A DNA stretch of 64,000 nt from Bryobacterales bacterium (GCA_965218615.1 CBDCLH010000008.1:497846-561845), one strand, 5' to 3'; counted from the stretch's first letter, positions 4,198-40,722 are shown. Translations and numbers: made by a program. Notes: generated by a model from the letters alone, not told the origin.

Positions 4198-4312
4198 CCA
4201 GAACTCCACACATCGATTGCGACCGACCGCCGTCCAGCGTTCCAACGCACACGGCGGCGGCGCATGTCCTCCGGGGCGCACGCCTAGGCAGCCCGTCAGG
4301 AGGAAAGCCAGC

Positions 4313-4744
4313 TCAGGTCGTGAGAGCCGTTCTGGGAGGGGGGACCGAGGGGGGATACGCGGCTGCGGGCAACGGGTCACGCGCGGTCACGGCCCACGAC
4401 GAGAGGTTGGACGGACTCGGCAGGACTGCCCACAGCGGAGCCAAGTAGGGCGGCTCCGGACTCCAGTGCAACGCGGTCTCGTCACCAGCGCAGCGTTTTT
4501 TTGCGCTGCACTTGGGCCGCGATTCCGACGCTTCTTGCGTACGATGGCACGCCGCCCCGGATTCGGCTGTTTCGACAGGCTGCGCCGCCGCCTTCAGCCT
4601 GCAGGCCTCCTGGCATTTCCGGATCGATCCGTACAAGGGGCATGCGCTTTGCGAGGGGGAAGCGATCGCCGCCGCGGCCTGCCACGGGAGCAGTATCAGT
4701 GCAGCCACCAGCGCGAGCGGACGATACTGGCGCAGACTTTGCAC
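4313..4744 (-). CDS. Hypothetical small secreted Cys-rich protein
   Basis: N-terminal signal-like PLALVAALILLPWQAAAA, with 6 Cys in the first 85 residues. It sits directly upstream of the TonB receptor. The C-terminal half is of low quality and there is no family match by eye. Confidence 0.3.
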   Translation of the reverse strand: MQSLRQYRPLALVAALILLPWQAAAAIASPSQSACPLYGSIRKCQEACRLKAAAQPVETAESGAACHRTQEASESRPKCSAKKRCAGDETALHWSPEPPYLAPLWAVLPSPSNLSSWAVTARDPLPAAAYPPSVPPPRTALTT

Positions 4745-8184: not shown

Positions 8185-8883
8185 ATGACGAGGATCACTT
8201 GGCTGGGCCACTCCACGTTTCGTGCGGAAGTCGGCGAGGGTCCCACCATCCTGATCGACCCGTGGTTCACCGGCAATCCGTCCTACCCGCAAGGCTTCAG
8301 CCTGGAGCGCGTCGACCTGATGCTGATTACGCACGGGCATCCCGATCACATCGGGGACGTCCTGGCGGTCGCCAAACGTTTTCAACCCCAGATCGTCTGC
8401 AACTATGAGATCTCGCTCTGGCTGGGGTCCAAGGGCGTTGGCAACTGTGTCGGGATGAACAAGGGCGGCTGTCACCACACGGAGGGCGTCCGGATCTCGA
8501 TGACCCACGCGCAGCACAGCAGTTCCATTGCCGAGGACGGCCAACTGATCTACGCCGGAGAGCCAGCGGGATTCGTCGTGCGGCAGCCCGACGGACGGGC
8601 TTTTTTCCATGCGGGCGACACCAACGTCTTCAGCGACATGCAGCTGATCCGGCGCTTGTACGGACCCGAGCTGGCCTTCCTTCCGATCGGCGACCTGTTC
8701 ACGATGGGTCCGACGGAAGCGGCGCTGGCGTGCGAGTTCCTGCAGCCCAACATCGTCATCCCGATGCACTACGGAACATTCCCGGTGCTCACGGGGACGC
8801 CCGAGAAGCTGCGGGCTGAACTCGGCGAGGACTCTGCGGTCGTGGTGCCGACGCTCGCGCCGGGCGGCAGCTACGACTGGTAG
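8185..8883 (+). CDS. Metal-dependent hydrolase, MBL fold (UPF0173-like)
   Basis: MTRITWLGHSTF..ILIDPWF..DLMLITHGHPDHIGD..FHAGDT..IPMHYGTFP. Confidence 0.85.
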   Translation: MTRITWLGHSTFRAEVGEGPTILIDPWFTGNPSYPQGFSLERVDLMLITHGHPDHIGDVLAVAKRFQPQIVCNYEISLWLGSKGVGNCVGMNKGGCHHTEGVRISMTHAQHSSSIAEDGQLIYAGEPAGFVVRQPDGRAFFHAGDTNVFSDMQLIRRLYGPELAFLPIGDLFTMGPTEAALACEFLQPNIVIPMHYGTFPVLTGTPEKLRAELGEDSAVVVPTLAPGGSYDW

Positions 8884-8898
8884 GACTCTATCGGCTGC

Positions 8899-9330
8899 TC
8901 AGCGATTCGAGAGCCCTTCGTAGGTCTCGTCTTCGGCGGCCTCGGTCGTGACCGGGAGCCCTCGCGGCATCCAGCCGGGGTAGATCAGGTTTCCCATCCT
9001 GTCCGACTCCCCGTGGAACCCGCCGCGCATGTCGACGACATCGGAGAACCCGTTCTCGATCAGGATCTGCGCCGCCCGCATCGAGCGTCCTCCCTTCAGG
9101 CAGGCCGTGATGATCTTGGCATCCTTGCCGAGCGCCTGCTCGCAGACCGCCAGAAACTCGCCATTGGGCCGCATGCCCGCCGGCGTGCGGTGCAGCAATG
9201 GAACATTCTTCGCTCCGGGCGGATGCCCCGCCTCGAACTCGGGGATCGAGCGCACGTCTAGGTAGACGTAGCCCTCCTCGGCTTCCAAGAGGTCTCGGGC
9301 TTCCTCGGGTGAAATGCGTTGGAACTCCAT
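8899..9330 (-). CDS. Rhodanese-domain sulfurtransferase
   Basis: MEFQRISPEEARDLL..YVYLDVRSIPEFEAGHPPGAKNVP, with active-site loop ACLKGGRSMRAAQ (CxxGxR[ST]). ATG at 9330 lies inside the listed ORF. Confidence 0.85.
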   Translation of the reverse strand: MEFQRISPEEARDLLEAEEGYVYLDVRSIPEFEAGHPPGAKNVPLLHRTPAGMRPNGEFLAVCEQALGKDAKIITACLKGGRSMRAAQILIENGFSDVVDMRGGFHGESDRMGNLIYPGWMPRGLPVTTEAAEDETYEGLSNR

Positions 9331-9697
9331 GGCGCGTACCGCTCCACGCTCGCGCATCTGCGCCCCACTTGTCAAATCGTCGGTTTCGGCCCGCGGCCCG
9401 GCGCGCGCAAGCAGCCGCAAGAGAGTGGCCCTCGACAGGCGGGTGGATTGTGGATCGCATCACCGAAATTCACGGCGGAGCCCATGTCACTCGCGCATCG
9501 GACGAGGTGGCTGAGGGGACCCTGAGCAGCGATCCGGCGCCCACCAAGGGCCAAGCCGAGTCCGAGAAATTCCGCCTTCCGCCAAACAGGGACGGTTCTG
9601 AAATCGGACCTGCTGCGCGTCCAGAGCTTCCTCTCGAGGGCGGGCCGCCGCGTCGACCACGTCGGACCTCGTCTTGCCGCGACAAGTCCGACTCGCT

Positions 9698-10645
9698 ATG
9701 ATCGGCGTTTCTTCGGCTATGCCCACACCTCCGGAAGTCTCTGTCGTCATCCCGGTTCGCAACGAAGAGGGGACCGTGGCGGAACTGGCGCGGTGTTTGC
9801 GAGACACGCTGCCGCAGGCTCACGAGATCCTGTTTGTGGATGACGGCAGCAGCGACCGCACATGGCCGCGCCTCGTGCGGATCCACGAACCCGGCCGCGT
9901 GCGCCTGGTCAAGCTTCGCGCTCCGTACGGCAAGTCCGCTGCTCTGATGGCCGGCTTCGCCCGCTCGCGCGGGGCGATCGTCTTGACTCTCGACGGTGAT
10001 CTGCAAGACGATCCGGCTGAAATCCCGGCCTTTCTGGGCAAGCTTGAACAGGGCTACGACCTCGTGACAGGCTGGAAGAAGACACGGCGCGATCCCCTCC
10101 ACAAGGTAGCGGCCTCGCGGCTGTTCAACTTTCTGATGCGGCGCGTGACCGGCATCCCTCTGCACGACATGAACTGCGGATTCAAGTGCTTCCGCGGGGA
10201 GCTGGCGAGATCTCTTCGCCTCTATGGGGACCAGCACCGCTTCATTCCCGTCTTCGCGGTGCATCAGGGCTACCGCGTCGGCGAAATCGAGGTGCGCCAC
10301 CATCCACGCCGGCACGGCCGCTCGAAATATGGCTTCAGCCGTCTTTTCAAGGGCGTCCTCGACCTGGGCGCCGTCCTCCTGCGGACGCGTTTCCACGGCC
10401 GACCAGCGCACGCCTTCGGCCTCGCGGCGTGCGCCTTCCTGCTGGGCTCGGCCGTGCTGTTGGCGCTTTCCGCACCCCGCTTGCTGCCCCCGGCGCTCGC
10501 CGCGCTGGCCTTGCCGCTGGGTGTCGTGCTGGGCGGCGGCGCGTTCGTCTTCTTGGCGGCCGGCTGGCTTGCTGAAATTTGGCTCGACAGCGCTCCGCAC
10601 GAGGCATCGGCCTGCGCCCCTAGCGTCGAGGAAGCCCGTGACTAG
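9698..10645 (+). CDS. Glycosyltransferase family 2 (polyprenol-phosphate sugar transferase, DPM1/ArnC-like) with C-terminal TM helices
   Basis: VSVVIPVRNEEGTV..ILFVDDGSSDRT..GKSAALMAGF..VLTLDGDLQDDP..HDMNCGFKCFR..GDQHRFIP. The start could be ATG 9698 or TTG 9674. Confidence 0.85.
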   Translation: MIGVSSAMPTPPEVSVVIPVRNEEGTVAELARCLRDTLPQAHEILFVDDGSSDRTWPRLVRIHEPGRVRLVKLRAPYGKSAALMAGFARSRGAIVLTLDGDLQDDPAEIPAFLGKLEQGYDLVTGWKKTRRDPLHKVAASRLFNFLMRRVTGIPLHDMNCGFKCFRGELARSLRLYGDQHRFIPVFAVHQGYRVGEIEVRHHPRRHGRSKYGFSRLFKGVLDLGAVLLRTRFHGRPAHAFGLAACAFLLGSAVLLALSAPRLLPPALAALALPLGVVLGGGAFVFLAAGWLAEIWLDSAPHEASACAPSVEEARD

Positions 10646-11558
10646 GTGGGTCCTCCCGACCGTCAAAGTTGCCGTTCCGCTGATCCTGGCCTTCTTCATC
10701 GGCCGCATGATCTACGGCCACTGGCAACAGGTCCGCGCGGAGCCATGGCGGCTGGACGCCGCCTGGCTCGCGCTCTCGTTCGCCTTGGCGGCGGCCTGGT
10801 ATCTGCTCCGGCCCTTGGGCTGGACCCTGCTGATCCGGGGATTCGGCCATGACGTGCCCTACTGGGGAATCTACCGCGTCTACCGCCAATCGGAACTGAG
10901 CCGCTACGTGCCGGGTGGCGTCTGGCAGTTCGCGAGCCGGATCTACCTGACCCGGCGTTACGGAGTCGGAGCGCCCGCGTGCCTGGCGGCGACGGCGCTC
11001 GACATGGTGCTCGCCGCGCTCGCCGCCCTGGTTCCAGCGGCATGGCTGGCGGGCTCGGCCTCGACATCGCTCGGCGCCTGGCAAAGAGCCGCCCTACTCG
11101 CCTTCCCGTTGCTGACCTGCACGATGGTCTACCCGCGCGTCCTCAACGTTTGGGCGGAACCCCTCGCCCGCCTCCTCCGGCAGCCCTACCGACGGCTCGA
11201 GACCGGCGCCGTGCAGATCTTCGGGATCTGGGCCATCTACGTGGCGACCTGGATCCTTCTTGCGTTCGCCATGGCCGCCTTCGCGAGGGCGTTGCTGCCC
11301 GACATCGGAGGCAGTCAACTCGCCTACATCGGAGGGTGCTACGCCCTGGCCTGGCTGGCTGCTCTGCTCACGATGGTTGCCCCTGCCGGCGTCGGGATCC
11401 GCGAAGGCATCCTCGGGCTGCTGCTGGGCCAGACGGTGGCCGCAGGCACGGCGATGACGCTGGCGGTCGCCATGCGCCTCTGGATCGTGTGCATGGAGAT
11501 CGTCTGGTTCGCGGCCGGAACTCGAATGCCCCGGAAAGACCCGGAAAGCGCGGACTAG
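10638..11558 (+). CDS. Flippase-like / lysylphosphatidylglycerol-synthase TM-region family membrane protein (UPF0104-like)
   Basis: Polytopic membrane protein with ..SELSRYVPGGVWQFASRIYL..VAPAGVGIREGILGLLL. GTG at 10638 overlaps the GT2 stop by 8 nt. Confidence 0.7.
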   Translation: MTRWVLPTVKVAVPLILAFFIGRMIYGHWQQVRAEPWRLDAAWLALSFALAAAWYLLRPLGWTLLIRGFGHDVPYWGIYRVYRQSELSRYVPGGVWQFASRIYLTRRYGVGAPACLAATALDMVLAALAALVPAAWLAGSASTSLGAWQRAALLAFPLLTCTMVYPRVLNVWAEPLARLLRQPYRRLETGAVQIFGIWAIYVATWILLAFAMAAFARALLPDIGGSQLAYIGGCYALAWLAALLTMVAPAGVGIREGILGLLLGQTVAAGTAMTLAVAMRLWIVCMEIVWFAAGTRMPRKDPESAD

Positions 11559-12196
11559 AGTTCCCGCACGGCGATGTTGCGGAATCTGTGCTCCAGGCCG
11601 GGAGCGCAGCGCTCGCCGCCGTGGACCTGGACGGCGATGCTGCCTCGCATCGCGCCCCGTGGGAGACGGTTCTCGGTGTCCTGAAAGTCGACGATCCGAG
11701 CGCCATTCAGCGACACTTCGATGCGGGGAGCCTCGCCGCGGATGCGCACCCGGAGCGCGTTCCAATCGTCCCTGTTCCAGACCGTCTCCCAGCCCTCCGA
11801 AGGCTGGATCTCGAGGCCCGGCAGCCCTTCCCCGTAGATGCCACCGACGTTGCCGCCCTCCAGGTAGTCCAGCATCACCTGGTAGGCTTGGCCGCTGCCG
11901 CTGGAGCGCAGGAACAGGCCGCCCTCGCAGCCGAAGTCCGGCTTGATCTCCAGATAGACCTCAAAGTCCTCGAAGGATTCGTCCGTCAGCAGGATGCCGC
12001 CGTTGCCTTCCCGGTCCTGCTGGCCCACCAGGGCGCCCTCGTAGACGCGCCACTCCTTCGTGTCCCCGTGATGGTTCGTCAGACTCATATGCCAACCGGC
12101 CAGATTGCGGCCGTTGAAGATCGGGCGGAAGCCATCCGGCGCCTGCGCTGCGAGAAGGCAGGGAAGGAAAACCAGGAAGAGCCGTCGAGTCTGCAT
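11555..12196 (-). CDS. DUF1080 (3-keto-disaccharide hydrolase-like) secreted protein
   Basis: Signal MQTRRLFLVFLPCLLAAQA, then FRPIFNGRNLAGWH..W.VYEGALVG..ILLTDESFEDFEVYLEIK..NGGIY..LRVRIRG..VSLNG..IAVQVHG..FRNIAVREL. Confidence 0.8.
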   Translation of the reverse strand: MQTRRLFLVFLPCLLAAQAPDGFRPIFNGRNLAGWHMSLTNHHGDTKEWRVYEGALVGQQDREGNGGILLTDESFEDFEVYLEIKPDFGCEGGLFLRSSGSGQAYQVMLDYLEGGNVGGIYGEGLPGLEIQPSEGWETVWNRDDWNALRVRIRGEAPRIEVSLNGARIVDFQDTENRLPRGAMRGSIAVQVHGGERCAPGLEHRFRNIAVREL

Positions 12197-12288
12197 GCCG
12201 GAGCGAACCGTTCCGGTCAGGGTAGCACGGCCTGTTCCGGTTGTCTGGCTGCCCAGGATGGGCGAAATATCTGCTACGCTCTCCCCGT

Positions 12289-13533
12289 ATGGCCACGGAC
12301 GCAACGAGACGCCAGTTTCTGGGCGGCATCGCGACCGCGTCGGCGCTGGCCGCACGCCCGCCAGGGGTGCGCGCCGCCGACGCGGGCGAAGGGTACTGGC
12401 AACAGGTTCGCGAACAGTTCCCTTTTCGGGAAGAGCGGGTGCCGATGAACGCGGCGAATCTGTGCCCTTCACCCCAGATGGTCGCGGAAACGGTCACGGA
12501 GTTGACCCACTCGATCGACGTCGACTGCTCGTTTCAGAATCGTGCGCGCTTCGGGCGCGATCGCGAGACAGCGCGCACGCTGCTGGCGGGCCAGTTAGGC
12601 GCCGATGCGGATGAACTCGCGCTGGTTCGCAATACGAGCGAAGCGAACAACATCATCAACAACGGACTCGACCTCGGAGCCGACGACGAAGTCGTGATCT
12701 GGGATCAGAACCACCCGACCAACCACGTCGCCTGGACCGTGCGGGCCCAGCGGCGGGGATTCGTGGTGCAGGCTGTGACCGTTCCGACCCACCCTTCCGG
12801 TCCGGACGAGTTGATCCAGCCGTTTCGCCGCGCGCTCACGCCGAGGACCCGTGTGCTGGCGCTGACCCACGCGTCGAACATCAGCGGCATTCTGCTGCCG
12901 GTTCGCGATCTGTGCGAGATCGCCCACCGCTCGGGAATCCACGTCCACGTCGACGGCGCCCAGACCTGGGGGGCGCTCCAAGTCGATCTGCACGAACTCA
13001 GCTGTGACTCCTACGCCGCCAGCGCGCACAAGTGGTTCTGTGGACCGAAGGAGGTCGGCCTGCTCTACGTCCGCCGTGAACGGATCCGCGACATCTGGCC
13101 CAATACCGTAGCCCCGGGATGGGGCTCGACTGCGGACACGGAACTCGTGGGCGCCCGGAAGTTCGAGTCGATGGGACAAAGGGACGACGCCGCCCTCAGC
13201 GCACTCGGCGGAAGTGCGGAGTTCCACGCGTCGATTGGGAAGGCGCGGGTCGAAGCGCGGGTCCGGGAACTCGCTGCCCTGCTCAAGCAGTCTCTGCTTG
13301 CGGTCGGGGCCACGCTCGTCACACCGACGGAGCAGGCTCTGAGCGCAGGCGTGTGCATCGTGAATGTGCCGCCCGCGCAACGCCAGACGCTATTCGACGC
13401 AATGTACGAGGAATTCGGCATCGCGGGTTCGACAGCCGGAGGCTTCCGACTGTGCCCGCATATCTACAATACGCGCGAGCACGTCGAGAGGGCGGTGCGG
13501 GGCCTCGAGAAGCAGCGCAGCCTGTGGGCCTGA
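12289..13533 (+). CDS. Class V aminotransferase / cysteine-desulfurase-fold PLP enzyme with TAT signal
   Basis: MATDATRRQFLGGIATASALAA signal, ..MNAANLCPSP..RNTSEANN..HASNISG..HVDGAQ..SAHKWFCGPKEVG (PLP Lys). Confidence 0.8.
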   Translation: MATDATRRQFLGGIATASALAARPPGVRAADAGEGYWQQVREQFPFREERVPMNAANLCPSPQMVAETVTELTHSIDVDCSFQNRARFGRDRETARTLLAGQLGADADELALVRNTSEANNIINNGLDLGADDEVVIWDQNHPTNHVAWTVRAQRRGFVVQAVTVPTHPSGPDELIQPFRRALTPRTRVLALTHASNISGILLPVRDLCEIAHRSGIHVHVDGAQTWGALQVDLHELSCDSYAASAHKWFCGPKEVGLLYVRRERIRDIWPNTVAPGWGSTADTELVGARKFESMGQRDDAALSALGGSAEFHASIGKARVEARVRELAALLKQSLLAVGATLVTPTEQALSAGVCIVNVPPAQRQTLFDAMYEEFGIAGSTAGGFRLCPHIYNTREHVERAVRGLEKQRSLWA

Positions 13534-18233: not shown

Positions 18234-19271
18234 ATGGGCGAGCGGAGTTCCAGCGCCGGCTACCGGGTTCTTGTCATCGCCGCGCTCGTCATCGCCGTGG
18301 CCGGGATTCGAGCCGCTTCTGACATCGTCATCCCCTTCCTGCTCTCCGTATTCATCGCCATCCTGTGCGGACCCGCGGTCTTCTGGCTCCATCGCCGCGG
18401 CATCCCGAAGGCGATCGCCATTCTGATCGTGGTGGTCGCGGTGATGGGAGGCCTGACGCTGATTGGCAGCATCGCCCTCACTTCGCTGCAGGAGTTCACC
18501 GGACAAGTGCCTGTCTATCAGGAACGTCTGGAGATCATGCTGCAAACCACAGCGGGCCGGCTGCAGGATCTCCTCGAGCCCTTGGGCCTCACCATCGCCT
18601 ATACCGACCTCTGGGCCAACTTCGACTTGAACTCCGCGGTCGGCTTTGCCGGAACCACGTTGCTGCAGTTCGGCAGCGTGCTCACCAAGACCTTGCTGGT
18701 CTTTCTCACGGTCCTGTTCATGTTGCTGGAGGCCTCCCGGTTCCCGGCGAAGCTCTCCGCCGCGCTGGGCCCGTCCAACACCGCTTGGTCGGGCTTTCGG
18801 CAGTTCGCCGACAGCATCAAGAACTACCTCGCCATCAAGACCGCGACCAGCCTGGCGACCGGACTCTGCGCGGGGCTTTGGCTCTGGATTCTAGGCGTGG
18901 ACAACGCCTTCTTTTGGGGTCTGCTGGCGTTCTTGTTCAACTATATCCCCAACATCGGTTCGATCCTCGCCGCCGTCCCGCCGTGTCTGATGGCTCTCTT
19001 GCAGAATGGCGTCACGAGCGCCCTGCTGGTCGCCCTTGGCTACGTCCTCATCAATGTCGTCATCGGGAGCCTCGTCGAACCGAACTTCATGGGCGACGGC
19101 CTCGGCCTGTCTCCCCTGATCGTGTTCATTTCCCTCGTCTTCTGGGGCTGGCTGCTCGGCGGGGCTGGAATGCTGCTGTCCACCCCTCTGACCATGAGCG
19201 TCAAGATCGCTCTTGAGAACAATGCTGAAACGCGTTGGATCAGCATCTTGATGGGATCCGGAAAGTCCTGA
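18234..19271 (+). CDS. AI-2E family transporter (PerM/UPF0118)
   Basis: ..FLLSVFIAIL..GIPKAIAILIV..FLFNYIPNIGSILAAVPP..GSLVEPNFMGDGLGLSPLIVFISLVFWGWLLG..GMLLSTPLT. Confidence 0.85.
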   Translation: MGERSSSAGYRVLVIAALVIAVAGIRAASDIVIPFLLSVFIAILCGPAVFWLHRRGIPKAIAILIVVVAVMGGLTLIGSIALTSLQEFTGQVPVYQERLEIMLQTTAGRLQDLLEPLGLTIAYTDLWANFDLNSAVGFAGTTLLQFGSVLTKTLLVFLTVLFMLLEASRFPAKLSAALGPSNTAWSGFRQFADSIKNYLAIKTATSLATGLCAGLWLWILGVDNAFFWGLLAFLFNYIPNIGSILAAVPPCLMALLQNGVTSALLVALGYVLINVVIGSLVEPNFMGDGLGLSPLIVFISLVFWGWLLGGAGMLLSTPLTMSVKIALENNAETRWISILMGSGKS

Positions 19272-19294
19272 CCCCGGCCGACTGGGCTACAATC

Positions 19295-21295
19295 ATGCCG
19301 GAGGTCATGGCCCCCATGCGACGCACCCTAGTCCTGGCGTTGCTGGCGGTTGCCGTGCTCCGAACCGCTGAATACAGCGACCGGGAACGCGCATACTGGG
19401 CCTTCCAGCCCCGCGCCGACGTTCCGATCCCCGCGACCCGTTCCTCCTGGGTGCGCAATCCGGTGGACGCCTTCATCCTGCAGCAACTCGAGATCAGGGG
19501 CCTGCATCCCGCGCCCCAGGCCGACCGCGCCACGCTGGCCCGGCGCGTCCACTTTGACGTGACCGGGCTGCCTCCGACGCCCGCCGAGCTCGGCGCCTTC
19601 CTCAGGGACACCGCCCCTGGAGCCTCGGAGCGGCTCGTCGACCGCCTTCTGGCGAGTCCGCGATATGGCGAGCGCGGGGCGCAGCACTGGCTGGACGTCG
19701 TGCGCTACGCCGAAACAGAGGGGTTCGAGTACGACCGCTACCTTCCGGGGCTGTGGCGCTACCGCGACTACGTGATCGAATCGCTGAATCAGGATAGGCC
19801 CTACGATCAGTTTGTCCGACAGCAGCTCGCTGGGGACGAAATGGTCCGCGGCGAGCCGACCCTGGAATCGAACCACGATCTGCTGGCCGCCGCGGGCCTG
19901 CACCGCCTGGGCCCGGTCCGGCGCAATGCCGGCAACCAGGAGGTCGCCTCCAGCCGCAACGAAGTCCTGACGGAACGCACCGACCTCATCGGCGCGGCCT
20001 TCCTCGGTCTGACGGTCGGTTGCGCCCGCTGCCACGACCACAGGTTCGATCCGATCCGGCAGGTTGACTACTACCGCCTCCAAGCGTACTTCGGCGCGGC
20101 CCACGAGCAGAACGTGGTTTTCGAGGGCGAGACCACGATCGAGGAGTGGCGGAAGCGCACCAAGGAAATCTCCGGCGAGATGAAGACCTTGCGCGGCCGC
20201 ATCAAGCTCGCGCAAGGGGAGGAGCGCGGCCGTCTCCAAGCCGAGCACGACGAACTCGAGGCCCAGCGGCCCGAGCCGCCATCGACTCTAGCGACCTTGC
20301 GGAATGATGCCGAGGACGCCACGCGCATCCACGTGCTCAGCCGGGGCGACCACACCAAGCCCCTGCAACCCGTCAACCCGCGTCCCCTGGGCGTGCTGTT
20401 GCCCGAAGACGCTCCCGCGCTCCCTCCGGACATCCAGAATCCTCGTTCGCGGCTCGCCGACTGGATCACGGATCCGGACCATCCGCTCAGCGCCCGGGTT
20501 CTCGTCAACCGCCTCTGGCTGGGCCACTTCGGACGGGGTATCGTCGAAACGCCCAACGACTTCGGGTTCATGGGCGGCAGGCCGAGCCATCCGCAGTTGC
20601 TCGACTTCCTGGCCAACGAGCTGGTCCGGGGAGGTTGGAGGCTGAAACGCATCCACCGCATGATTCTGACTAGCAGCACCTACCGCCAAGCCTCCAGGAA
20701 CCCCGATGCCGACACGCGGGGCATGCAGACGGACGCGGGTAACCGCCTGCTGTGGCGCGGCCCGCTGCGCCGGCTGAGCGCCGAAGAGGTTCGGGACGCC
20801 ATGCTGGCCGCCTCGGGGGAGCTGAATCTGGGCTACGGCGGGAAGAGCGTCATGCTGCCGGCGGAGGAGGCACTCGTGGACCTGCTCTACGACCCGACGC
20901 AATGGCGTGTGGCGGACGACCCCGCGCAGCACCGCCGCCGGTCCGTGTACCTGATCGCCAAGCGCAACCTGCGGCTGCCATTCATGGAGGTGTTCGACCA
21001 GCCGGCCCTGCTGACCAGCTGCGCGCGCCGTGAGACGAGCACGCATGCGCCCCAATCGTTGGAACTGCTCAACGGATCCCTGGCGAACGAACTCGCCGAA
21101 CGCTTCGCCGCGCGCCTCCAACTCGAAGCCGGAGACGGCCTGGAGCAGCTCATCGAGCGGGCCTACCTGCTGGCGGCCAGCCGCCGGCCCACCGCCAGAG
21201 AGTTCCATTTGGCGCACGAGTTTCTCGCGGGGAATCCACTGCGTGAATTCGCCTTGGCGATGTTCAACCTCAACTCCTTCCTCTACGTCCACTGA
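19295..21295 (+). CDS. DUF1549/DUF1553 domain protein (PSD1-like)
   Basis: WAFQP..NPVDAFILQQLE..GL.PAP.ADRATLARRV.FD.TGLPPTP.E...F..SPRYGERGAQHWLDVVRYAETEGFEYD..CARCHDHRFDPI.Q.DYYRL.AYF..NRLW..FG.GIV.T.NDFG. The start is ambiguous among ATG 19295, 19307 and 19316. Confidence 0.8.
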   Translation: MPEVMAPMRRTLVLALLAVAVLRTAEYSDRERAYWAFQPRADVPIPATRSSWVRNPVDAFILQQLEIRGLHPAPQADRATLARRVHFDVTGLPPTPAELGAFLRDTAPGASERLVDRLLASPRYGERGAQHWLDVVRYAETEGFEYDRYLPGLWRYRDYVIESLNQDRPYDQFVRQQLAGDEMVRGEPTLESNHDLLAAAGLHRLGPVRRNAGNQEVASSRNEVLTERTDLIGAAFLGLTVGCARCHDHRFDPIRQVDYYRLQAYFGAAHEQNVVFEGETTIEEWRKRTKEISGEMKTLRGRIKLAQGEERGRLQAEHDELEAQRPEPPSTLATLRNDAEDATRIHVLSRGDHTKPLQPVNPRPLGVLLPEDAPALPPDIQNPRSRLADWITDPDHPLSARVLVNRLWLGHFGRGIVETPNDFGFMGGRPSHPQLLDFLANELVRGGWRLKRIHRMILTSSTYRQASRNPDADTRGMQTDAGNRLLWRGPLRRLSAEEVRDAMLAASGELNLGYGGKSVMLPAEEALVDLLYDPTQWRVADDPAQHRRRSVYLIAKRNLRLPFMEVFDQPALLTSCARRETSTHAPQSLELLNGSLANELAERFAARLQLEAGDGLEQLIERAYLLAASRRPTAREFHLAHEFLAGNPLREFALAMFNLNSFLYVH

Positions 21296-29456: not shown

Positions 29457-29485
29457 AATATTTGGAGATGAGATAACATTCAGAA

Positions 29486-30394
29486 ATGGATCTTGCGCTC
29501 CTGCGCCTGTTCGAAACGGTCGCGGACGAGGGTAGCTTCTCCCGCGCGGGGCAGAAGCTGCGGCGGTCGCAGCCAGCCATCTCGTTGGCCCTCAAGCGCC
29601 TCGAAGAGGACCTCGGAGTGCAGCTGATCGACCGCTCGTCCCGCACGCTACGCCTGACCGATGCCGGCCGGGAGATCTCTGGCTACGCGAAGCAGTTCCT
29701 GGGGCTCGAACGGAAGATGCGCGTCGCCCTGTCGGAACTGCGCGACTTGCAGGCCGGCAAGCTCACGGTAGGGGCCAATGAGTCGACCGCGCTGTACTTG
29801 CTCGGACACGTCGAAGCCTTCCGCCGACGGTACCCGGGCATCCAGGTCGAGCTGCGCCGGAGCCTGTCCAGCCGCATCCCCGAAGCCGTCCACGAGGGTT
29901 CGCTGGAACTCGGCGCGATCAGCTACGACCCGGGCGATCCCAAGCTGCGGATCTTTCACTTGTATGAGGACCGGCTGACGTTCGTCGTGTCCCCGCAGCA
30001 CCGCCTGGCCGGGCGCCGCAGGATCAGCATCACGGAACTCGGCGAGGAGACCTTCATCGCCCACAACGTGGTGTCGCCATACCGCGCCAGGGTGATTGAA
30101 ACTTTCCGTCGGCACCAAGTGCCACTCAACATGGCGATTGAAATGCCGACCGTCGAGACCATTCGGCGTCTGGTGCAGCGCAACCTTGGCGTCGCGTTCC
30201 TGCCCAAGATGTGTGTCGAGCAGCAGATCCGCAGCGGCGCCTTGCGGGAAGTGGGGGTGCGCGAGCTGGTCCTCGAACGGACCATTCGGCTCATCTACCC
30301 GGCTCGCAGGACGCTCTCCCAGGCGTCCCGAGCGTTCCTCGAACTGGTGGGCGAGGCGGTGCCACCCGCCTCCGGAGCGTCTCCCGACGGCTGA
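29486..30394 (+). CDS. LysR family transcriptional regulator
   Basis: N-terminal wHTH LRLFETVADEGSFSRAGQKLRRSQPAISLALKRLEEDLGVQLIDR, plus a LysR substrate-binding domain. Confidence 0.9.
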   Translation: MDLALLRLFETVADEGSFSRAGQKLRRSQPAISLALKRLEEDLGVQLIDRSSRTLRLTDAGREISGYAKQFLGLERKMRVALSELRDLQAGKLTVGANESTALYLLGHVEAFRRRYPGIQVELRRSLSSRIPEAVHEGSLELGAISYDPGDPKLRIFHLYEDRLTFVVSPQHRLAGRRRISITELGEETFIAHNVVSPYRARVIETFRRHQVPLNMAIEMPTVETIRRLVQRNLGVAFLPKMCVEQQIRSGALREVGVRELVLERTIRLIYPARRTLSQASRAFLELVGEAVPPASGASPDG

Positions 30395-30483
30395 CGGCGA
30401 TCGCATTCCGCCCGCTTCGGGGTTTGCGGCCGCTGTGCTAGGATGAGCGCCGAACCGCGGCCTGGGCTCAGGCTGCGAAGTCT

Positions 30484-31662
30484 ATGCGAGTCTGCTATCT
30501 GGACTGCTTCTCGGGCATTGCCGGCGACATGCTGCTCGGTGCTCTGGTCGACGCGGGCCTGGACGTGTCCCTGCTGCAGGCCGAGATCGCCAAGCTGCAG
30601 TTGGACAAGCTCGCGATCCGCGCGGAACCGGCGCGGCGAGGCGGACTGGCGGCCACCAAAGTGCATGTCGACACGCCGCACGAGCACGCGCATCGCACAC
30701 TCGCGACGATCGAGCGGATCCTCGACGAATCTGCTCTGGAAGAGCCGGTCAAGGACGCCAGCCGCCGGGTCTTCCGGCGCCTGGGCGAGGTCGAGGCTCG
30801 GGCCCACGGCATTTCCATCGAGAAGGTCCACTTCCACGAGGTGGGCGCCCTGGACTCCATCGCCGACATCGTCGGCGCGTGCGCCGCGTTCCGCGCCTTG
30901 GGCGTGGAGCGCATCTGCTGCTCTCCTATCAATCTCGGCAGCGGGACGGTCGAGGCCGCCCACGGCACGATGCCTGTACCCGCCCCGGCGACCGCGCGCC
31001 TGGTGGAAGGGATCCCCACGTACTCGGAGGGCCCCCGCGCAGAGCTGACGACCCCCACGGGCGCCGCGCTGGCCGTCACGCTGAGCAGCGCCTTCGGGGC
31101 GCTGCCCGCCATGCGCATCGCGGCCAGCGGCTATGGGGCGGGCTCCAACGATTTCCCGGAGCGGGCGAATCTGCTGCGCGTCCTGATTGGGGAGACGGAG
31201 GACGAGGACACGCCACCCGAGCAGATCTGGGTGCTCGAGGCGAGCATCGACGACATGACGCCGCAGATGGCCGGCTACGCGATGGAGCGCCTGCTCGACG
31301 CCGGCGCCCTCGACGTAACGTTGACGCCCGTGTACATGAAGAAGAACCGGCCCGGCTTCAAGGTGACCGTGCTGGCCGCCCCCGAGGACCGCGCCGCCTT
31401 GGGTGACCTGATCTTCGCCGAGACGACCACCATCGGGATCCGCGAGGCGCCCGCGCGCCGACGCACGCTCAAGCGAGCGTGGCAACACGTCCGCACGCGC
31501 TACGGCACGGTGCGCATCAAGACCGCGGGCCGCGAGGGAGACTCGGCGAACTTCGCGCCCGAGTACGAGGACTGCCGCCGACTCGCGCGCGAGCACGGCG
31601 TGCCATTTCAACGAGTCTGGCAGCAGGCCAACCAGGAGTACCTGCGCGGCAAGGAGTCCTGA
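30484..31662 (+). CDS. larC: Nickel-pincer cofactor biosynthesis protein LarC (DUF111 family)
   Basis: YLDCFSGIAGDMLLGALVDAG..HFHEVGALDSIADIVG..SPINLGSGTV..AHG.MPVPAPAT..ELTTPTGAAL..LEA.IDDM.PQ..TPV.MKKNRPG. Confidence 0.85.
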   Translation: MRVCYLDCFSGIAGDMLLGALVDAGLDVSLLQAEIAKLQLDKLAIRAEPARRGGLAATKVHVDTPHEHAHRTLATIERILDESALEEPVKDASRRVFRRLGEVEARAHGISIEKVHFHEVGALDSIADIVGACAAFRALGVERICCSPINLGSGTVEAAHGTMPVPAPATARLVEGIPTYSEGPRAELTTPTGAALAVTLSSAFGALPAMRIAASGYGAGSNDFPERANLLRVLIGETEDEDTPPEQIWVLEASIDDMTPQMAGYAMERLLDAGALDVTLTPVYMKKNRPGFKVTVLAAPEDRAALGDLIFAETTTIGIREAPARRRTLKRAWQHVRTRYGTVRIKTAGREGDSANFAPEYEDCRRLAREHGVPFQRVWQQANQEYLRGKES

Positions 31663-37529: not shown

Positions 37530-37626
37530 CGGCTTCTTCGGAAGTCTACCAGACTGGGATGTGAACTCTGGGCCCCTCCCCGAAACCGGCGGCTGTGGAA
37601 TACTGGGACTCGCGGGGAAACCTCTC

Positions 37627-38454
37627 ATGGTCCGTTTCGTTGTATTGCTTTCGCTTCTGGTTCTTGCGGCCGCGATCCCGTGCGCGGCGGACAGCCACCA
37701 GCAGTACCCGACCGGCTATACCGATACGCCCTTCCTACCCGGCGGCCGCTGGCGGGTCCACGACGACGCCCGCCCTCGCCCTCGGATCGTCGAACCCGGG
37801 GCGGCCAGCACGCCCAGCCAGCCCGACACGCCGCCCGCGGATGCGGTCGTGCTTTTCGACGGCATCGATCTCCGCCAGTGGGTGCGGCGCGGCCAGGGCG
37901 GCAAAATCCTGGAGCCCGCCTGGAAGGTCGAGAACGGCTACATGGAAATCGTGCCCGGCACGGGCAGCCACAGGACCAAGGAGGCCTTCGGGGACGTGCA
38001 GCTCCACATCGAGTGGGCGACGCCGAGCCAACTGCATGGCGCCAGTCAAGCCCGTGGTAACAGTGGCGTGATGTTCATGGAACTCTATGAGATTCAGGTT
38101 CTGGACTCCGACGACAACATCAGCTACGCCGATGGCCAGGCCGGCGCGATCTACGGGCAGTATCCACCTCTCGTGAACGCCTCCCGCAAGCCAGGCGAGT
38201 GGCAGACCTACGACATCGTCTTCGAAGCGCCGCGCTTCGACGGAGACAAGCTCCAAAAGCCCGCCTATATCACTGTCTTCCACAATGGCGTTCTGCTCCA
38301 CCACCGCCAGGAGATGATGGGGCCGATGCGCCACAAAGTTCCGAGCGAGTACTCCTCCCACGCCGCGGAACTGCCGTTGCTGCTGCAAGCCCACGACAAT
38401 CCGGTGCGGTATCGCAACATCTGGGCGCGGCGCCTGACACTACGCGACCCGTAG
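37627..38454 (+). CDS. DUF1080 (3-keto-disaccharide hydrolase-like) secreted protein
   Basis: Signal MVRFVVLLSLLVLAAAIPCAA, then ..DAVVLFDG.DL..W..W.VENGYMEI..T.EAFGDVQLHIEW..NSGV..YEIQVLDS..DGQAGAIYGQ.PP..W.TYDIVF.AP..TVFHNGVL. Confidence 0.8.
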   Translation: MVRFVVLLSLLVLAAAIPCAADSHQQYPTGYTDTPFLPGGRWRVHDDARPRPRIVEPGAASTPSQPDTPPADAVVLFDGIDLRQWVRRGQGGKILEPAWKVENGYMEIVPGTGSHRTKEAFGDVQLHIEWATPSQLHGASQARGNSGVMFMELYEIQVLDSDDNISYADGQAGAIYGQYPPLVNASRKPGEWQTYDIVFEAPRFDGDKLQKPAYITVFHNGVLLHHRQEMMGPMRHKVPSEYSSHAAELPLLLQAHDNPVRYRNIWARRLTLRDP

Positions 38455-39150
38455 CGCAAGCACCGCCAGCGGCAGCGCCAATCCGAGGACGAGATCCCAG
38501 GCGCTGGACTGTCTCGCCCTCAGCCGTGGGAATTCGCCCCGAAAACCGCGCACCAGCATCGCTTGCGCCACGCGCTCGGCGCGCTCCCAACCGCGCACGA
38601 ACACCATTGCGACCTGATTCGCCCACACGCGGATCCGGCCACTCCTGATGCGGCCGCCGGTGCGGCACTCGCGCGCCCGCGCGATGCGGCGCCACTCTTC
38701 AAGCAGCACAAAGAGATAGCGGTGCATCAGGATCGCCGTCAGCGCCAGTCCCCGCGGCGCCCCGAGGCGTCGCAGGGACTCGACGATGTCCTCGATCGGC
38801 GTCGTCGCGGCGAGCAGCGACAGCAGCAAGATCGCCGAGTAAGCCTTGAGGACGACGGTCAATGCGAGACGATACGCGTCCGGCGCGGCGGACGCCAACG
38901 GAAGCAGCGCCGCCATCCCGATGAATGGCGTGGCCGCCAACAATCGCCGCGACAGGTAGCGGAGCGGAACGCGGGACAAGACCCACAACCCGGCCAGCAT
39001 GGCCAGCGCAGCCGGGAATCTCCACCCGGCCGCAGCCGGAAACGTCGAGATCGCCAGCACGGCGCCGAGCGCCCCGCACAGTTTGGCCGACGAATCCATC
39101 CGGGCGAGGGGCGAGTGTGGCGCCGCGACCGGGCCGTCGAAGTCTCTCAT
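38440..39150 (-). CDS. cbiQ: ECF-type cobalt/nickel transporter transmembrane (T) component CbiQ
   Basis: ..MDSSAKL..TPFIGMAALL..LKAYSAILLLSLLAATTP..IVESLRRLG.P..L.L...HRY.F.L.EE..RI..A...R. ATG at 39150 forms an ATGA overlap with the upstream stop. Confidence 0.75.
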   Translation of the reverse strand: MRDFDGPVAAPHSPLARMDSSAKLCGALGAVLAISTFPAAAGWRFPAALAMLAGLWVLSRVPLRYLSRRLLAATPFIGMAALLPLASAAPDAYRLALTVVLKAYSAILLLSLLAATTPIEDIVESLRRLGAPRGLALTAILMHRYLFVLLEEWRRIARARECRTGGRIRSGRIRVWANQVAMVFVRGWERAERVAQAMLVRGFRGEFPRLRARQSSAWDLVLGLALPLAVLALRVA

Positions 39151-39587
39151 GCGGCTGTCCGGCGCCGTCGCAGCGCGTGCAGCGCGAGGATCAGCAGCGC
39201 GAGGACCAGCGCCGCCAAGCCCAGCGATCCGGAGATCCCGCTCCAAGGATCCCTCTCCGGAACTCGCGCGATGCCGTTGTCGTCGACAGCCACTGTCAGT
39301 TGGGTCCGGTGGCCCATCCCATCGTCCACGACGACGCGCCACTCGCCCGAGGCATCCGGGACGAAAGTCGCCCGACCGTGCACGTCGGTGCGTTGCCGCT
39401 GGTAGCTCCGGTTGGGCTCGGCCGGCGAGTAGACCAGCACCTCCGCGTCGGCCGGCTCACCGTCCGTATAGACGCAGCGCAGCGCCACTACGGGCGCTTG
39501 CAATTCCAACTGCGCCTGCAGTCCGTGCGCCTGCGCTAGCAGAGGCACGCCCAACCAGAGCGCGGCGACATGGGCCCAGCTCCGCAT
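39147..39587 (-). CDS. Accessory protein at the CbiN/NikK position: signal peptide, transthyretin/CarboxypepD_reg-like beta domain, C-terminal TM helix
   Basis: MRSWAHVAALWLGVPLLAQA, then ..CVYTDGEPADAEVLVYSP..RTDVHGRATFVPDASGEWRVVVDDGMGHRTQLTV, then TM GSLGLAALVLALLILAL + RRRR. ATGA overlaps occur at both ends. Confidence 0.6.
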   Translation of the reverse strand: MRSWAHVAALWLGVPLLAQAHGLQAQLELQAPVVALRCVYTDGEPADAEVLVYSPAEPNRSYQRQRTDVHGRATFVPDASGEWRVVVDDGMGHRTQLTVAVDDNGIARVPERDPWSGISGSLGLAALVLALLILALHALRRRRTAA

Positions 39588-40174
39588 CAGACGACGGAAG
39601 GCGCCAGGATCTCAGGCTTGGCGCGTCGCAGGAACCCAACGGCCGCCGCTGTGACGGCAGCCTCCAGGGCCGCAACCAACGCGTACAGCGTAGCCACCAC
39701 ATAGAAGCCGCGGCCGTAATCCGCCAGCTCAAACTCCCAGGCCAGTAGCAGCGCCGGCAGCAATGCGCCCAACAGGCCCGCCACCAGAGCGCGGTGCGTG
39801 TCGCCCAGAGGCAGCAGCCTCCAGATCCACCAGCCCGCATAAGCCCCCAGCCCCATGTTGAGCGTATTCACGCCCAATGAGAGGAGCCCACCATGCTGCA
39901 GCAGAAGGGATTGGAACAGCAGGCAGACGTAGAGGACCGGGAATGCTCTCTTGCCCAGCAAGATCCCCAGCAAGCCGTACAGCCCGAGGTGCGCCGGCAA
40001 GCCTGCGATCGGGAACTGGATGGTCGACACCACAAAGGCGGCAGCCGACGCGAGGCCCATTTTGGAAGCCTCCGCCACCTGCACCTTGCGGCACGTGCCA
40101 AAAAGGCACGCGCCGGTCACCAGATGCGCCGCGATACAGCCGCTGACAGGGAAGATGCCGTCCGCGATATGCAC
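39587..40174 (-). CDS. cbiM: ECF-type cobalt/nickel substrate-capture component CbiM/NikM
   Basis: N-terminus M-H-I-A-D-G (Met-His metal-ligand N-terminus typical of CbiM/NikM), with 5-6 TM segments and ..STIQFPI..HLGLYGLLGILLG... GTG start at 40174. Confidence 0.75.
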   Translation of the reverse strand: MHIADGIFPVSGCIAAHLVTGACLFGTCRKVQVAEASKMGLASAAAFVVSTIQFPIAGLPAHLGLYGLLGILLGKRAFPVLYVCLLFQSLLLQHGGLLSLGVNTLNMGLGAYAGWWIWRLLPLGDTHRALVAGLLGALLPALLLAWEFELADYGRGFYVVATLYALVAALEAAVTAAAVGFLRRAKPEILAPSVV

Positions 40175-40722
40175 GGGAGATGGGAGTATATCACGGGGCT
40201 GTCACGGCAAAGAGGAGAAACGGACCGACCAGGCGCCGCCGGAGACCACGCGAACAGGGTGGTTGGAATCGGGCGTCTCGAAACGGCCAAGGATAGCCTG
40301 GCCACTTCGTCGAGCAGACGGCTTCGTCGTGGAAAGCGCCAGTCGGGACCTGCTCTGTGATTGATGACTGGCCGCCGACCAAACCGCCGCACGGATCTCT
40401 CAGGCCCCCTGTACGCGGCGAATCAGGCCGCGCCCAGCGCCGCGGCGGCCGGAGGGACTCACCAAGTGTGCAAGGGAAACCAGCGGATCGATTAAGGTCC
40501 CGGCTGGCCAACTGCGGCGGGCTACACGACCTGGAGGTCGCATTCGGCCGGTGCAGAGAGGCCGACCTGGGATTCCCCTGGACTGGCTCTGATGCGCGCC
40601 GTGTTTCGGCCCGTGTAATCGTTCGCTGACGGGTCAACGGCGGCGGACCCAACTACGAGCAGGAGTGCGAACAGTGCGGCGGAAAGAGAGGGCCTTTCTG
40701 TCGGCGCCCCGCCGTCTGCGGT

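Follow-up and report, generated by a model that had tools for sequence, protein, structure and literature searches.

The window analysed here is a 64-kb stretch of DNA from a soil bacterium of the Bryobacterales (Acidobacteriota). Three overlapping genes were called on its minus strand in the order nikM-nikL-nikQ, with overlapping stop and start codons (Table 1), and the coordinates and sizes given for them in the first-pass annotation were borne out by the ORF calls. The same annotation had described ATGA overlaps at both junctions. This holds for the nikL/nikQ junction, where ATGA occupies 39150-39147, but not for the nikM/nikL junction, which reads TGATG and shares 1 base at 39587. Downstream of nikQ, the DUF1080 gene ends at 38454 and overlaps the nikQ stop convergently by 15 nt; therefore, a downstream cbiO has no room, as had been proposed. 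The DUF1080 gene is the operon boundary and lies outside the transporter, and a convergent DUF1080 neighbour was seen in all Bryobacterales loci with an inspected gene table. The locus type, a NikM-NikL-NikQ nickel/cobalt uptake system, is already known, and the only odd feature is the absence of an ATPase gene from the neighbourhood.

Table 1. Genes and sequence features of the nikM-nikL-nikQ region (positions in the window)
Feature	Position	Strand	Description
nikM/cbiM	39587..40174	(-)	195 aa, GTG start, N-terminus MHIADG; S component; Pfam CbiM
nikL (NikL2 type)	39147..39587	(-)	146 aa; replaces NikN/CbiN
nikQ/cbiQ	38440..39150	(-)	236 aa from the ATG overlapping the nikL stop; T (scaffold) component
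DUF1080 / 3-keto-disaccharide-hydrolase-like gene	37561..38454	(+)	Pfam PF06439 (3keto-disac_hyd), 4.2e-40
larC, nickel-pincer cofactor nickel-insertion protein	30442..31662	(+)	Pfam Ni_insertion, 2.1e-149
Extended -10-like box TGATATACT	40185..40193	(-)	TGnTAnAnT pattern conserved upstream of nikM

The box TGATATACT ends 10 nt upstream of the nikM GTG, and 26 of the 28 distinct Bryobacterales loci have the pattern TGnTAnAnT 9-11 nt before the nikM start codon. We infer a putative promoter role for this box, and its spacing from the GTG suggests that the nikM transcript probably has little or no leader. A two-hexamer promoter scan upstream of nikM gave no match because there is no -35 box. When the whole window was searched with Rfam at the gathering threshold, no riboswitch or other RNA was detected; a cobalamin riboswitch in particular was absent upstream of the operon and throughout the window (Rfam, together with a permissive scan of the 548-nt spacer). 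A glycine-riboswitch-like match on the opposite strand of this spacer scored 21.7 bits, below the gathering score of 32 (E 0.09), and was dismissed as a chance match.

The S and T components

NikM matched Pfam CbiM (PF01891) over residues 2-189 of 195 with an E-value of 1.9e-38 (132.8 bits, cutoff 23.1). GTG is the earliest possible start in the nikM ORF, and the product begins with MHIADG, in agreement with the earlier description of a CbiM/NikM-like S component with this N-terminus. NikM scored below every cutoff of the NCBIfam CbiM equivalogs (best 111 versus 173) and therefore represents a divergent subfamily. The ligand and loop-holding roles of the NikM residues have been defined in TtNikM2 (PMC3945884). 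In the alignment, Met1-His2, His62, Gln88, Gly95-Gly96, and Asn103 were kept in all Bryobacterales copies and matched Met1, His2, His67, Gln94, Gly101/102, and Asn109 of TtNikM2, respectively, so that NikM has the Met1-His2, His67-equivalent, and Gln/Gly-Gly/Asn residues, as do TtNikM2 and the R. capsulatus CbiMNQO. His62, located within ..LPAHLG.., was conserved in 28/28 Bryobacterales sequences and in all outgroup sequences. The first-pass annotation had named a NikM devoid of metal ligands as an outcome that would speak against its reading; Met1-His2 and His62 are both retained, and the metal ligands are thus intact.

However, NikM differs from TtNikM2 in one respect. The equivalent of His190/His194, which stabilises the planar metal site in TtNikM2 and RcNik(MN) through a hydrogen-bond network with Glu198/202 (PMC3945884), is missing from NikM through a 4-residue deletion, and the Glu198/202 equivalent is present (..ALEAAVT..). 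The same His-removing deletion is common to O-linked relatives from the Zixibacteria and Gemmatimonadaceae; the NikM relatives of the Clostridia and Kiritimatiellae retain the His190/194 equivalent.

NikQ exceeded the cutoff of NCBIfam TIGR02454 (ECF_T_CbiQ; 115.7 bits versus 111.8) and matched Pfam CbiQ at 1e-28 (100.9 bits, cutoff 25), which confirms the earlier call of a CbiQ-like T component. The X-Arg-X signatures of the T component are its coupling sites to A units (PMC3246461; PMC6828968). Like the canonical CbiMNQO/NikMNQO systems, NikQ carries both of these cytoplasmic signatures, Cys-Arg163-Thr and Val-Arg201-Gly. All 28 Bryobacterales sequences have Arg163 and Arg201, which the O-linked outgroups also conserve, and the two signatures rank among the best-conserved parts of NikQ.

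NikL in the place of CbiN

The middle protein had been annotated as something other than CbiN and, further, as a NikK/CbiK-like accessory protein fused into the CbiN position. The former claim stood. At E <= 1, neither Pfam nor NCBIfam gave a CbiN match for the 146-aa protein, and it has a 94-residue beta domain instead of a short loop; CbiN was rejected on both grounds. The latter claim was not sustained. In the HMM comparison that had been suggested against CbiN, NikK/NikL, and DUF4198 models, the protein matched NCBIfam NF058648 'NikL family', the HI1622 equivalog (E 2.4e-11; 43.9 bits, below its curated cutoff of 100), and the Pfam models DUF4198 and CarboxypepD_reg matched weakly. NF058648 was matched by 135/135 family representatives (best E 9.6e-23), and DUF4198 weakly by 92/135. 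Furthermore, BLASTP aligned the protein with NikL2 at E 3e-10 and with NikL1 at E 4e-4, and hhalign of the 135-sequence family profile against the cyanobacterial NikL2 ZP_01622756.1 gave a probability of 99.3% (E 7e-21, 138 columns). The two share the ..AHG.., VYSP, TD..G.F.F.PD, G.W, and GH motifs. A novel NikK fusion in the N position was therefore rejected, the protein belonging to the NikL family, which comprises 1609 cluster representatives at E <= 1e-3. These model scores place the family of the window protein beside the HI1622 type as a sister group and outside the equivalog itself.

NikL has long been known as the replacement of NikN in NikKMLQO/NikLMQO systems (PMC2667541). On its profile matches, the 146-aa protein is accordingly classed as a NikL2-type subunit, an established NikN/CbiN substitute and not a new one, and its gene deserves the name NikL rather than hypothetical. 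Compared with the NikL2 type of the NikLMQO/NikKMLQO systems (Rodionov et al. 2006; PMC2667541; e.g., Lawsonia intracellularis NikL2MQO), the locus has the same kinds of M and Q and an equally tight gene linkage; it differs in the gene order M-L-Q and in the absence of nikO from the operon and from +-10 kb around it. Compared with CbiMNQO/NikMNQO, the partner is a NikL with a periplasmic beta domain instead of the two-TM CbiN/NikN, and, with the O gene absent, the locus falls short of a complete group I set.

The AlphaFold2 model of NikL (pLDDT 82.8) consists of a helix (residues 4-17), a seven-strand sandwich (23-101), and a second helix (115-145). The transthyretin/CarboxypepD_reg-like beta domain described earlier is supported by this sandwich and by the weak Pfam matches. 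The TM-loop-TM topology described with it is less probable: residues 1-20 are more likely a Sec signal peptide with predicted cleavage between ..LLAQA and HG, followed by a periplasmic beta-sandwich (approximately 21-105 in the model) and a single C-terminal TM anchor (predicted at 115-145) with an RRRR tail. NikL proteins are predicted to have two hydrophobic segments, and the N-terminal segment and the C-terminal TM helix found here fit this pattern. A PDB sequence search with NikL detected no relative among the solved structures, and Foldseek of the model returned weak generic Ig/FN3/transthyretin-like matches and Zcp, none at E <= 1e-3.

Across 135 representatives, His21, Asp68, Gly71, Phe75, Gly81, Trp83, Gly92, and His93 of NikL were invariant, and His21 is the predicted mature N-terminus. 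In the distantly related DUF4198 family, an N-terminal His freed by signal-peptide cleavage binds Ni2+ (PMC12537917). Like the DUF4198 proteins (the NikK-like IsDUF4198, PMC12537917; Zcp, PMC12663993), NikL is a beta-sandwich protein with a Sec signal ending in ..A-H-G, the cleavage of which would leave His as mature residue 1; unlike them, it is half as large and membrane-anchored, and its matches to the DUF4198 model stay below threshold and are confined to the C-terminal third of that model. The invariant N-terminal His offers a testable idea of how L subunits, which are still poorly understood, may work.

Absence of nikO from the Bryobacterales loci

No ORF of the 64-kb window was hit by an HMM made with nine nikO genes from related loci, and none contained a Walker A motif together with an LSGGQ signature. 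These empty screens and the DUF1080 overlap downstream uphold the earlier statement that no ATPase gene is adjacent. Related loci were screened by a relaxed motif and then by the HMM from the nine nikO ORFs; the strict pattern (Walker A G..G.GK[ST] plus LSGGQ) misses nikO in distant relatives. By the HMM, nikO was absent within +-10 kb at 33/33 Bryobacterales loci (680 kb in all), and tblastn over the same 680 kb revealed no nikO remnant. In contrast, nikO adjoins nikQ in every non-Bryobacterales M/L/Q locus with DNA extending past nikQ, the nikO-linked relatives being found in Zixibacteria, Gemmatimonadaceae, Kiritimatiellae, Desulfovibrio cuneatus, Clostridia, and an Acidobacteriota contig (L038). 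The survey of O-less M-X-Q loci proposed earlier thus yielded the 33 Bryobacterales loci without nikO and nikO-linked relatives outside this order. The linkage to nikO has been lost throughout the sampled Bryobacterales, and its absence beside the operon is real. Two nikO-seeded protein searches were uninformative: among the best 120 matches listed, other taxa dominated and none lay on a contig matching those of the Bryobacterales loci. Two matches of these searches were inspected and proved to be ordinary M-Q-O loci of other organisms.

The median dN/dS over 129 pairs, which reach a dS of 1.5, was 0.17 for nikM, 0.34 for nikL, and 0.24 for nikQ, values that indicate purifying selection on each of the three. 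The order-wide loss of nikO linkage combined with purifying selection is what is new beyond the first-pass annotation. The missing-ATPase architecture itself has precedents among the entries of the 2009 catalogue considered here (PMC2667541): its supplement lists CbiMNQ without O in Clostridium botulinum and Thermosinus carboxydivorans, and Nik(MN1) with NikO at a separate location in Pelobacter carbinolicus. In these O-less loci, as here, the S and T genes are clustered (or S stands alone) with no adjoining A gene; however, they are single-genome entries with CbiN/NikN, whereas here NikL is the partner and the lack of O is conserved order-wide, with purifying selection alongside.

Energization and metal of the transporter

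The explanation that we favour, with moderate confidence, is a working group I ECF Ni(/Co) importer NikM-NikL-NikQ, the ATPase of which is encoded elsewhere and supplied in trans. NikL would be exported and held in the membrane by its C-terminal helix, and its beta-sandwich would capture the metal in the periplasm, probably via the N-terminal His21 and His93. The metal may then be passed from NikL to a square-planar four-nitrogen site in NikM, formed by the Met1 amino group, His2, and His62; these ligands are present in the sequence. NikM would dock on the scaffold NikQ, topple, and free the metal into the cytoplasm, a cycle whose canonical driver would be a NikO ATPase dimer on the two NikQ Arg signatures. 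Since NikQ and its docking arginines are under purifying selection, an ECF-type ATPase acting in trans is the likeliest driver.

An operon that lost nikO could instead be a decaying, nonfunctional remnant on its way to a pseudogene. Damage was indeed seen in relatives: a reverse-transcriptase gene stands in place of nikQ and the downstream synteny in L006, a frameshift splits nikQ in L008, and IS elements lie upstream of nikM in L004 and L007. However, several of the damaged loci come, judging from their contig names, from long-read assemblies, in which the frameshifts may be sequencing errors. Of the 33 Bryobacterales loci, 31 carry complete ORFs for M, L, and Q, and conservation extends to the start codon, the promoter box, the metal ligands, and the Arg signatures. 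Moreover, dN/dS values of 0.17-0.34, at dS up to 1.5, are well below 1, and on this ground the pseudogene remnant was rejected as exceedingly improbable.

The remaining alternatives concern the source of energy. NikQ-NikML may borrow the ATPase of a Nik(MN)QO, CbiMNQO, or BioMNY of the same genome, which would make it a hybrid of the dedicated (group I) and the shared (group II) ECF types. We see in this a narrower version of the trans-ATPase explanation, possible but tentative. It agrees with the conserved ATPase-docking arginines of NikQ. Solibacter usitatus is presumably a member of the Bryobacterales. Among the catalogue entries considered, this species has a Nik(MN1)QO, O included, and the separately located NikO of P. 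carbinolicus points in the same direction (PMC2667541); however, group II ECF transporters, in the account drawn on here, share A and T together, not A alone (PMC3246461). We regard it as unlikely that nikO was truly lost and that NikM and NikL import alone via cytoplasmic sinks or the membrane potential, with NikQ kept as a scaffold that aids toppling or stability. Such a transporter would be in keeping with the basal metal uptake by M and N without Q and O (in published assays cited in PMC3945884), with the O-less CbiMNQ and solitary Nik(MN) among the catalogue entries considered (PMC2667541), with the lack of nikO or a remnant in 680 kb at 33 loci, and with purifying selection on an operon without nikO. 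The NikQ Arg signatures should nevertheless drift without an ATPase, yet they are invariant. Furthermore, we know of no ATPase-independent role for any T component, which counts against this possibility.

If the ATPase is encoded elsewhere, as we favour, the system amounts to an ordinary nickel importer whose genes are split, and the matter is mainly one of annotation: pipelines that demand the full M, N, Q, and O set would overlook nickel uptake throughout an order of abundant soil Acidobacteria. Two independent points would go further, namely, that the Bryobacterales have no ECF-type ATPase for this system, which we consider improbable, and that NikL may have a histidine-brace-like site. In the former case, NikM-NikL-NikQ would be a natural ATPase-free S+T module, selected across an order, and its T component would work independently of ATP hydrolysis or recruit an unrelated energizer. 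It would then be a natural test case for the contribution of the T component to S toppling without ATP hydrolysis, a question that, to our knowledge, still occupies the ECF field. In the latter case, the mature N-terminal His and His93 may form the site on a membrane-tethered beta-sandwich feeding Ni to NikM.

As to the metal, Ni2+ is the likeliest substrate and Co2+ is less likely. Nickel is favoured because no cobalamin riboswitch lies upstream of the operon or in the window, because NikL-type loci in the catalogue are mostly annotated as nickel systems, and because larC occurs in conserved synteny. Among the entries considered, NikL2MQO, NikL2M-permease-O, and NikML1K1QO are annotated Ni and one NikK1ML1QO is unassigned (UN); against this, the NikK1ML1QO of five proteobacteria is predicted there to import Co (PMC2667541). 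The identical metal ligands of NikM and CbiM likewise count against choosing Ni over Co. No DUF4198/NikK gene was found among the subset of window ORFs scanned or in the gene tables of nine loci (L001-L009). NikL2 occurs only with NikK2/K3 in the 2009 survey, and NikL2MQO without K is also catalogued there (PMC2667541). The larC gene lies ~7 kb from the transporter operon, of which it is not a part, and takes the same relative place in six further loci (L002-L005, L008, and L009); from this position, LarC is a possible nickel consumer that may be functionally linked to the transporter.

Composition of the operon and identity of the middle protein

Three minus-strand ORFs were found where the first-pass annotation had placed a cbiM-X-cbiQ module. 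The ATGA overlap claimed for both junctions was seen at X/Q, whereas the M/X junction is TGATG with a one-base overlap. The nikQ stop lies in a convergent overlap with a plus-strand DUF1080/3-keto-disaccharide-hydrolase-like gene, as described before; the overlap spans 15 nt and that gene ends at 38454. Pfam assigned the nikM product to CbiM (1.9e-38) and the nikQ product to CbiQ (1e-28); the latter also passed TIGR02454 (ECF T component CbiQ; 115.7 bits vs a cutoff of 111.8), in agreement with the proposed CbiQ-like T component.

Features of the nik locus and its surroundings in the window
Feature	Position	Strand	Remarks
nikM/cbiM	40174..39587	-	195 aa; GTG start; N-terminus MHIADG
Middle gene (nikL)	39587..39147	-	146 aa
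nikQ/cbiQ	39150..38440	-	236 aa
Extended -10-like box	40185-40193	-	Equivalent position in related loci L002-L036
larC (nickel-pincer cofactor nickel-insertion protein)	30442-31662	+	Pfam Ni_insertion 2.1e-149
LysR regulator	29477-30394		Follows larC
Second DUF1080 paralogue	11555-12493	-	No obvious transporter link
DUF1549/DUF1553 (PSCyt2/PSD1) protein	19229-21295	+	No obvious transporter link
TonB-dependent receptor, N-terminal CarboxypepD_reg domain	1909-4386	-	No obvious transporter link

The 146-aa protein matched no CbiN model in Pfam or NCBIfam, and it is thus not a typical CbiN, as had been suspected. NCBIfam NF058648 ("NikL family nickel/cobalt ECF transporter subunit", HI1622 type) matched residues 10-104 (E 2.4e-11), although under its equivalog cutoff (43.9 vs 100 bits). 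With a profile built from 21 close relatives, 1609 cluster representatives were retrieved at E <= 1e-3, 636 of them also at E <= 1e-10; almost all are 140-190 aa long. Among the representatives tested, 135/135 matched the NikL model, while weak matches to DUF4198 and CarboxypepD_reg were seen in 92/135 and 67/135, respectively. Zhang et al. 2009 give reference sequences in their supplement and list Lawsonia with NikL2MQO (PMC2667541). The family profile aligned with NikL2 ZP_01622756.1 over 138 columns (hhalign probability 99.3%, E 7e-21); in BLASTP, the window protein alone reached E 3e-10 to NikL2 and E 4e-4 to NikL1. By sequence, the protein belongs to the known NikL family, L2 type, rather than being a non-canonical N-position protein. 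The locus is a NikM-NikL(L2)-NikQ nickel/cobalt ECF importer operon, a known kind of system, and the earlier interpretation was supported in part.

Absence of a linked ATPase gene

The absence of an ATPase gene from the module was borne out. No ORF of the 64-kb window combined a Walker A motif with an ABC signature, and none (1-64000) matched a nikO/ABC ATPase HMM built from nine nikO ORFs of related loci (E <= 1e-3). A survey of M-X-Q loci showed an ABC ATPase ORF in 0/33 Bryobacterales loci (+-10 kb), and tblastn detected no nikO remnant in 680 kb. Outside Bryobacterales, nikO adjoins nikQ in all M/L/Q loci for which there is sequence beyond nikQ (HMM), in the orders M-L-Q-O, L-M-Q-O and Q-O-M-L; an Acidobacteriota contig (L038) is among these O-linked loci. 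Therefore, nikO linkage was lost at the base of the sampled Bryobacterales group. The notable feature of the locus is this order-wide, selectively maintained absence of a linked ATPase gene.

Operon decay was rejected, since 31/33 loci have full-length M, L and Q and dN/dS is low. The median pairwise values (129 pairs) were 0.17, 0.34 and 0.24 for M, L and Q, and those of the closest pair (window vs L002) were 0.06, 0.36 and 0.14. NikQ keeps both X-Arg-X signatures (Arg163 and Arg201), the contacts of T units with A-unit ATPases (PMC3246461; PMC6828968); neither arginine varies among 28 Bryobacterales sequences, and both are also conserved in outgroups. Since these docking arginines are preserved, we argue that NikQ would still meet an ATPase encoded elsewhere in the genome. 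Alternatively, the operon products may take up metal independently of an ATPase, for which M+N units offer an experimental precedent (cited in PMC3945884); however, the retention of NikQ with its coupling motifs is then left unexplained. An ATPase supplied from elsewhere is thus the reading we prefer.

In the 2009 catalogue (PMC2667541), CbiMNQ without O is listed for Clostridium botulinum and Thermosinus carboxydivorans, solitary NikMN2 and Nik(MN3) also occur, Pelobacter carbinolicus has Nik(MN1) with a separate NikO, and Solibacter usitatus has Nik(MN1)QO. From these entries, an M-x-Q locus without O is already on record, though rare; the partner in the two CbiMNQ cases is N, whereas here it is NikL. 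The lack of any ABC ATPase over 64 kb had seemed notable for a soil bacterium.

Metal site, NikL and substrate

NikM and NikQ are intact by alignment. The Met-His N-terminus of NikM was confirmed, and Met1-His2, His62, Gln88, Gly95-Gly96 and Asn103 are conserved, equivalent to Met1, His2, His67, Gln94, Gly101/102 and Asn109 of T. tengcongensis NikM2 (TtNikM2), where Met1, His2 and His67 supply the four nitrogen ligands of a square-planar Ni site (PMC3945884). Unlike TtNikM2, however, the window NikM lacks the His190/194 stabiliser through a 4-residue deletion (residues ~160-175; ~39650-39700, minus strand). In the model system, mutation of this His (TtNikM2 His190 / RcNik(MN) His194) severely reduces Ni uptake; stabilisation of the metal site must work in another way in this NikM subfamily. 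Bryobacterales share the deletion with the O-linked relatives from Zixibacteria and Gemmatimonadaceae, which makes it a trait of the subfamily with no bearing on the ATPase question.

An AlphaFold2 model of NikL (pLDDT 82.8) comprises a helix (4-17), seven strands (23-101) and a long helix (115-145). By inspection, ..LLAQA|HG at the end of the N-terminal segment is a standard AxA signal-peptidase site. Mature NikL would then consist of a beta-sandwich in the periplasm, held by a single C-terminal anchor with RRRR after it, and His21 would be its first residue. Across 135 distant relatives, His21, Asp68, Gly71, Phe75, Gly81, Trp83, Gly92 and His93 are invariant. Signal peptides of the distantly related, NikK-like DUF4198 proteins also end in ..AHG and expose an N-terminal His, which binds Ni2+ with a second conserved His (Kd 18 nM; PMC12537917); Zcp, another DUF4198 protein, binds Zn, Co, Ni and Cu (PMC12663993). 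By analogy, we propose that NikL captures metal via His21 and His93 and then delivers it to NikM. The fold matches of NikL were weak and generic, and no sequence relative was found among solved structures.

Nickel is favoured as the metal because no cobalamin riboswitch was detectable upstream of the operon or within the window, most of the NikL-type loci looked up in the catalogue carry a Ni annotation (NikL2MQO, NikL2M-permease-O, NikML1K1QO; one NikK1ML1QO carries no metal assignment), and larC lies in conserved synteny. Cobalt is possible by analogy with the NikK1ML1QO systems of five proteobacteria, predicted Co importers in the main text of the same source (PMC2667541).

Start region and neighbourhood

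A near-invariant extended -10-like box, TGnTATACT, ends 9-11 nt upstream of the nikM start in 26/28 distinct Bryobacterales loci. Since a Shine-Dalgarno leader would not fit in between, the nikM mRNA probably has little or no leader; function requires the exact Met1-His2 N-terminus, which may explain the tight spacing. Most loci start nikM with GTG, whereas L029, L030 and L032 use ATG. A sub-threshold glycine-riboswitch-like match in the surA-nikM spacer (40319-40426, plus strand, opposite to the operon; 21.7 bits vs a gathering score of 32, E 0.09) is probably due to chance.

Scanning one genome per species gave 44 loci, ~31 of them in MAGs that carry the label Bryobacterales (Acidobacteriota). 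The others belong to Zixibacteria, Gemmatimonadaceae, Kiritimatiellae, a PVC-group MAG, Desulfovibrio cuneatus, another Desulfovibrionaceae, Clostridia/Peptococcaceae/Syntrophomonadaceae, a Halalkalibacter and an unclassified Acidobacteriota contig. The window is thus part of a Bryobacterales genome. Close relatives of the 146-aa protein occur in only one syntenic context, rpoA - rplQ - surA-like - M - X - Q, followed by DUF1080 - DUF2007 - PafA-like phosphatase - ... - tatD - metG - larC. The larC gene, whose product is a possible nickel consumer, lies ~7 kb from the transporter, with synteny kept in L002-L005, L008 and L009; housekeeping tatD and metG stand between, and an operon link is absent.

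Some relatives show damage or mobile elements at the locus. L006 has a reverse-transcriptase gene, possibly a group II intron, in place of nikQ and of the synteny downstream (8447-10362), and nikQ is split by a frameshift in L008 (8426-9140). The surA-nikM spacers of L004 (7267-9138) and L007 (3014-5842) carry insertions of transposase genes that are paired with a DruA-domain gene.
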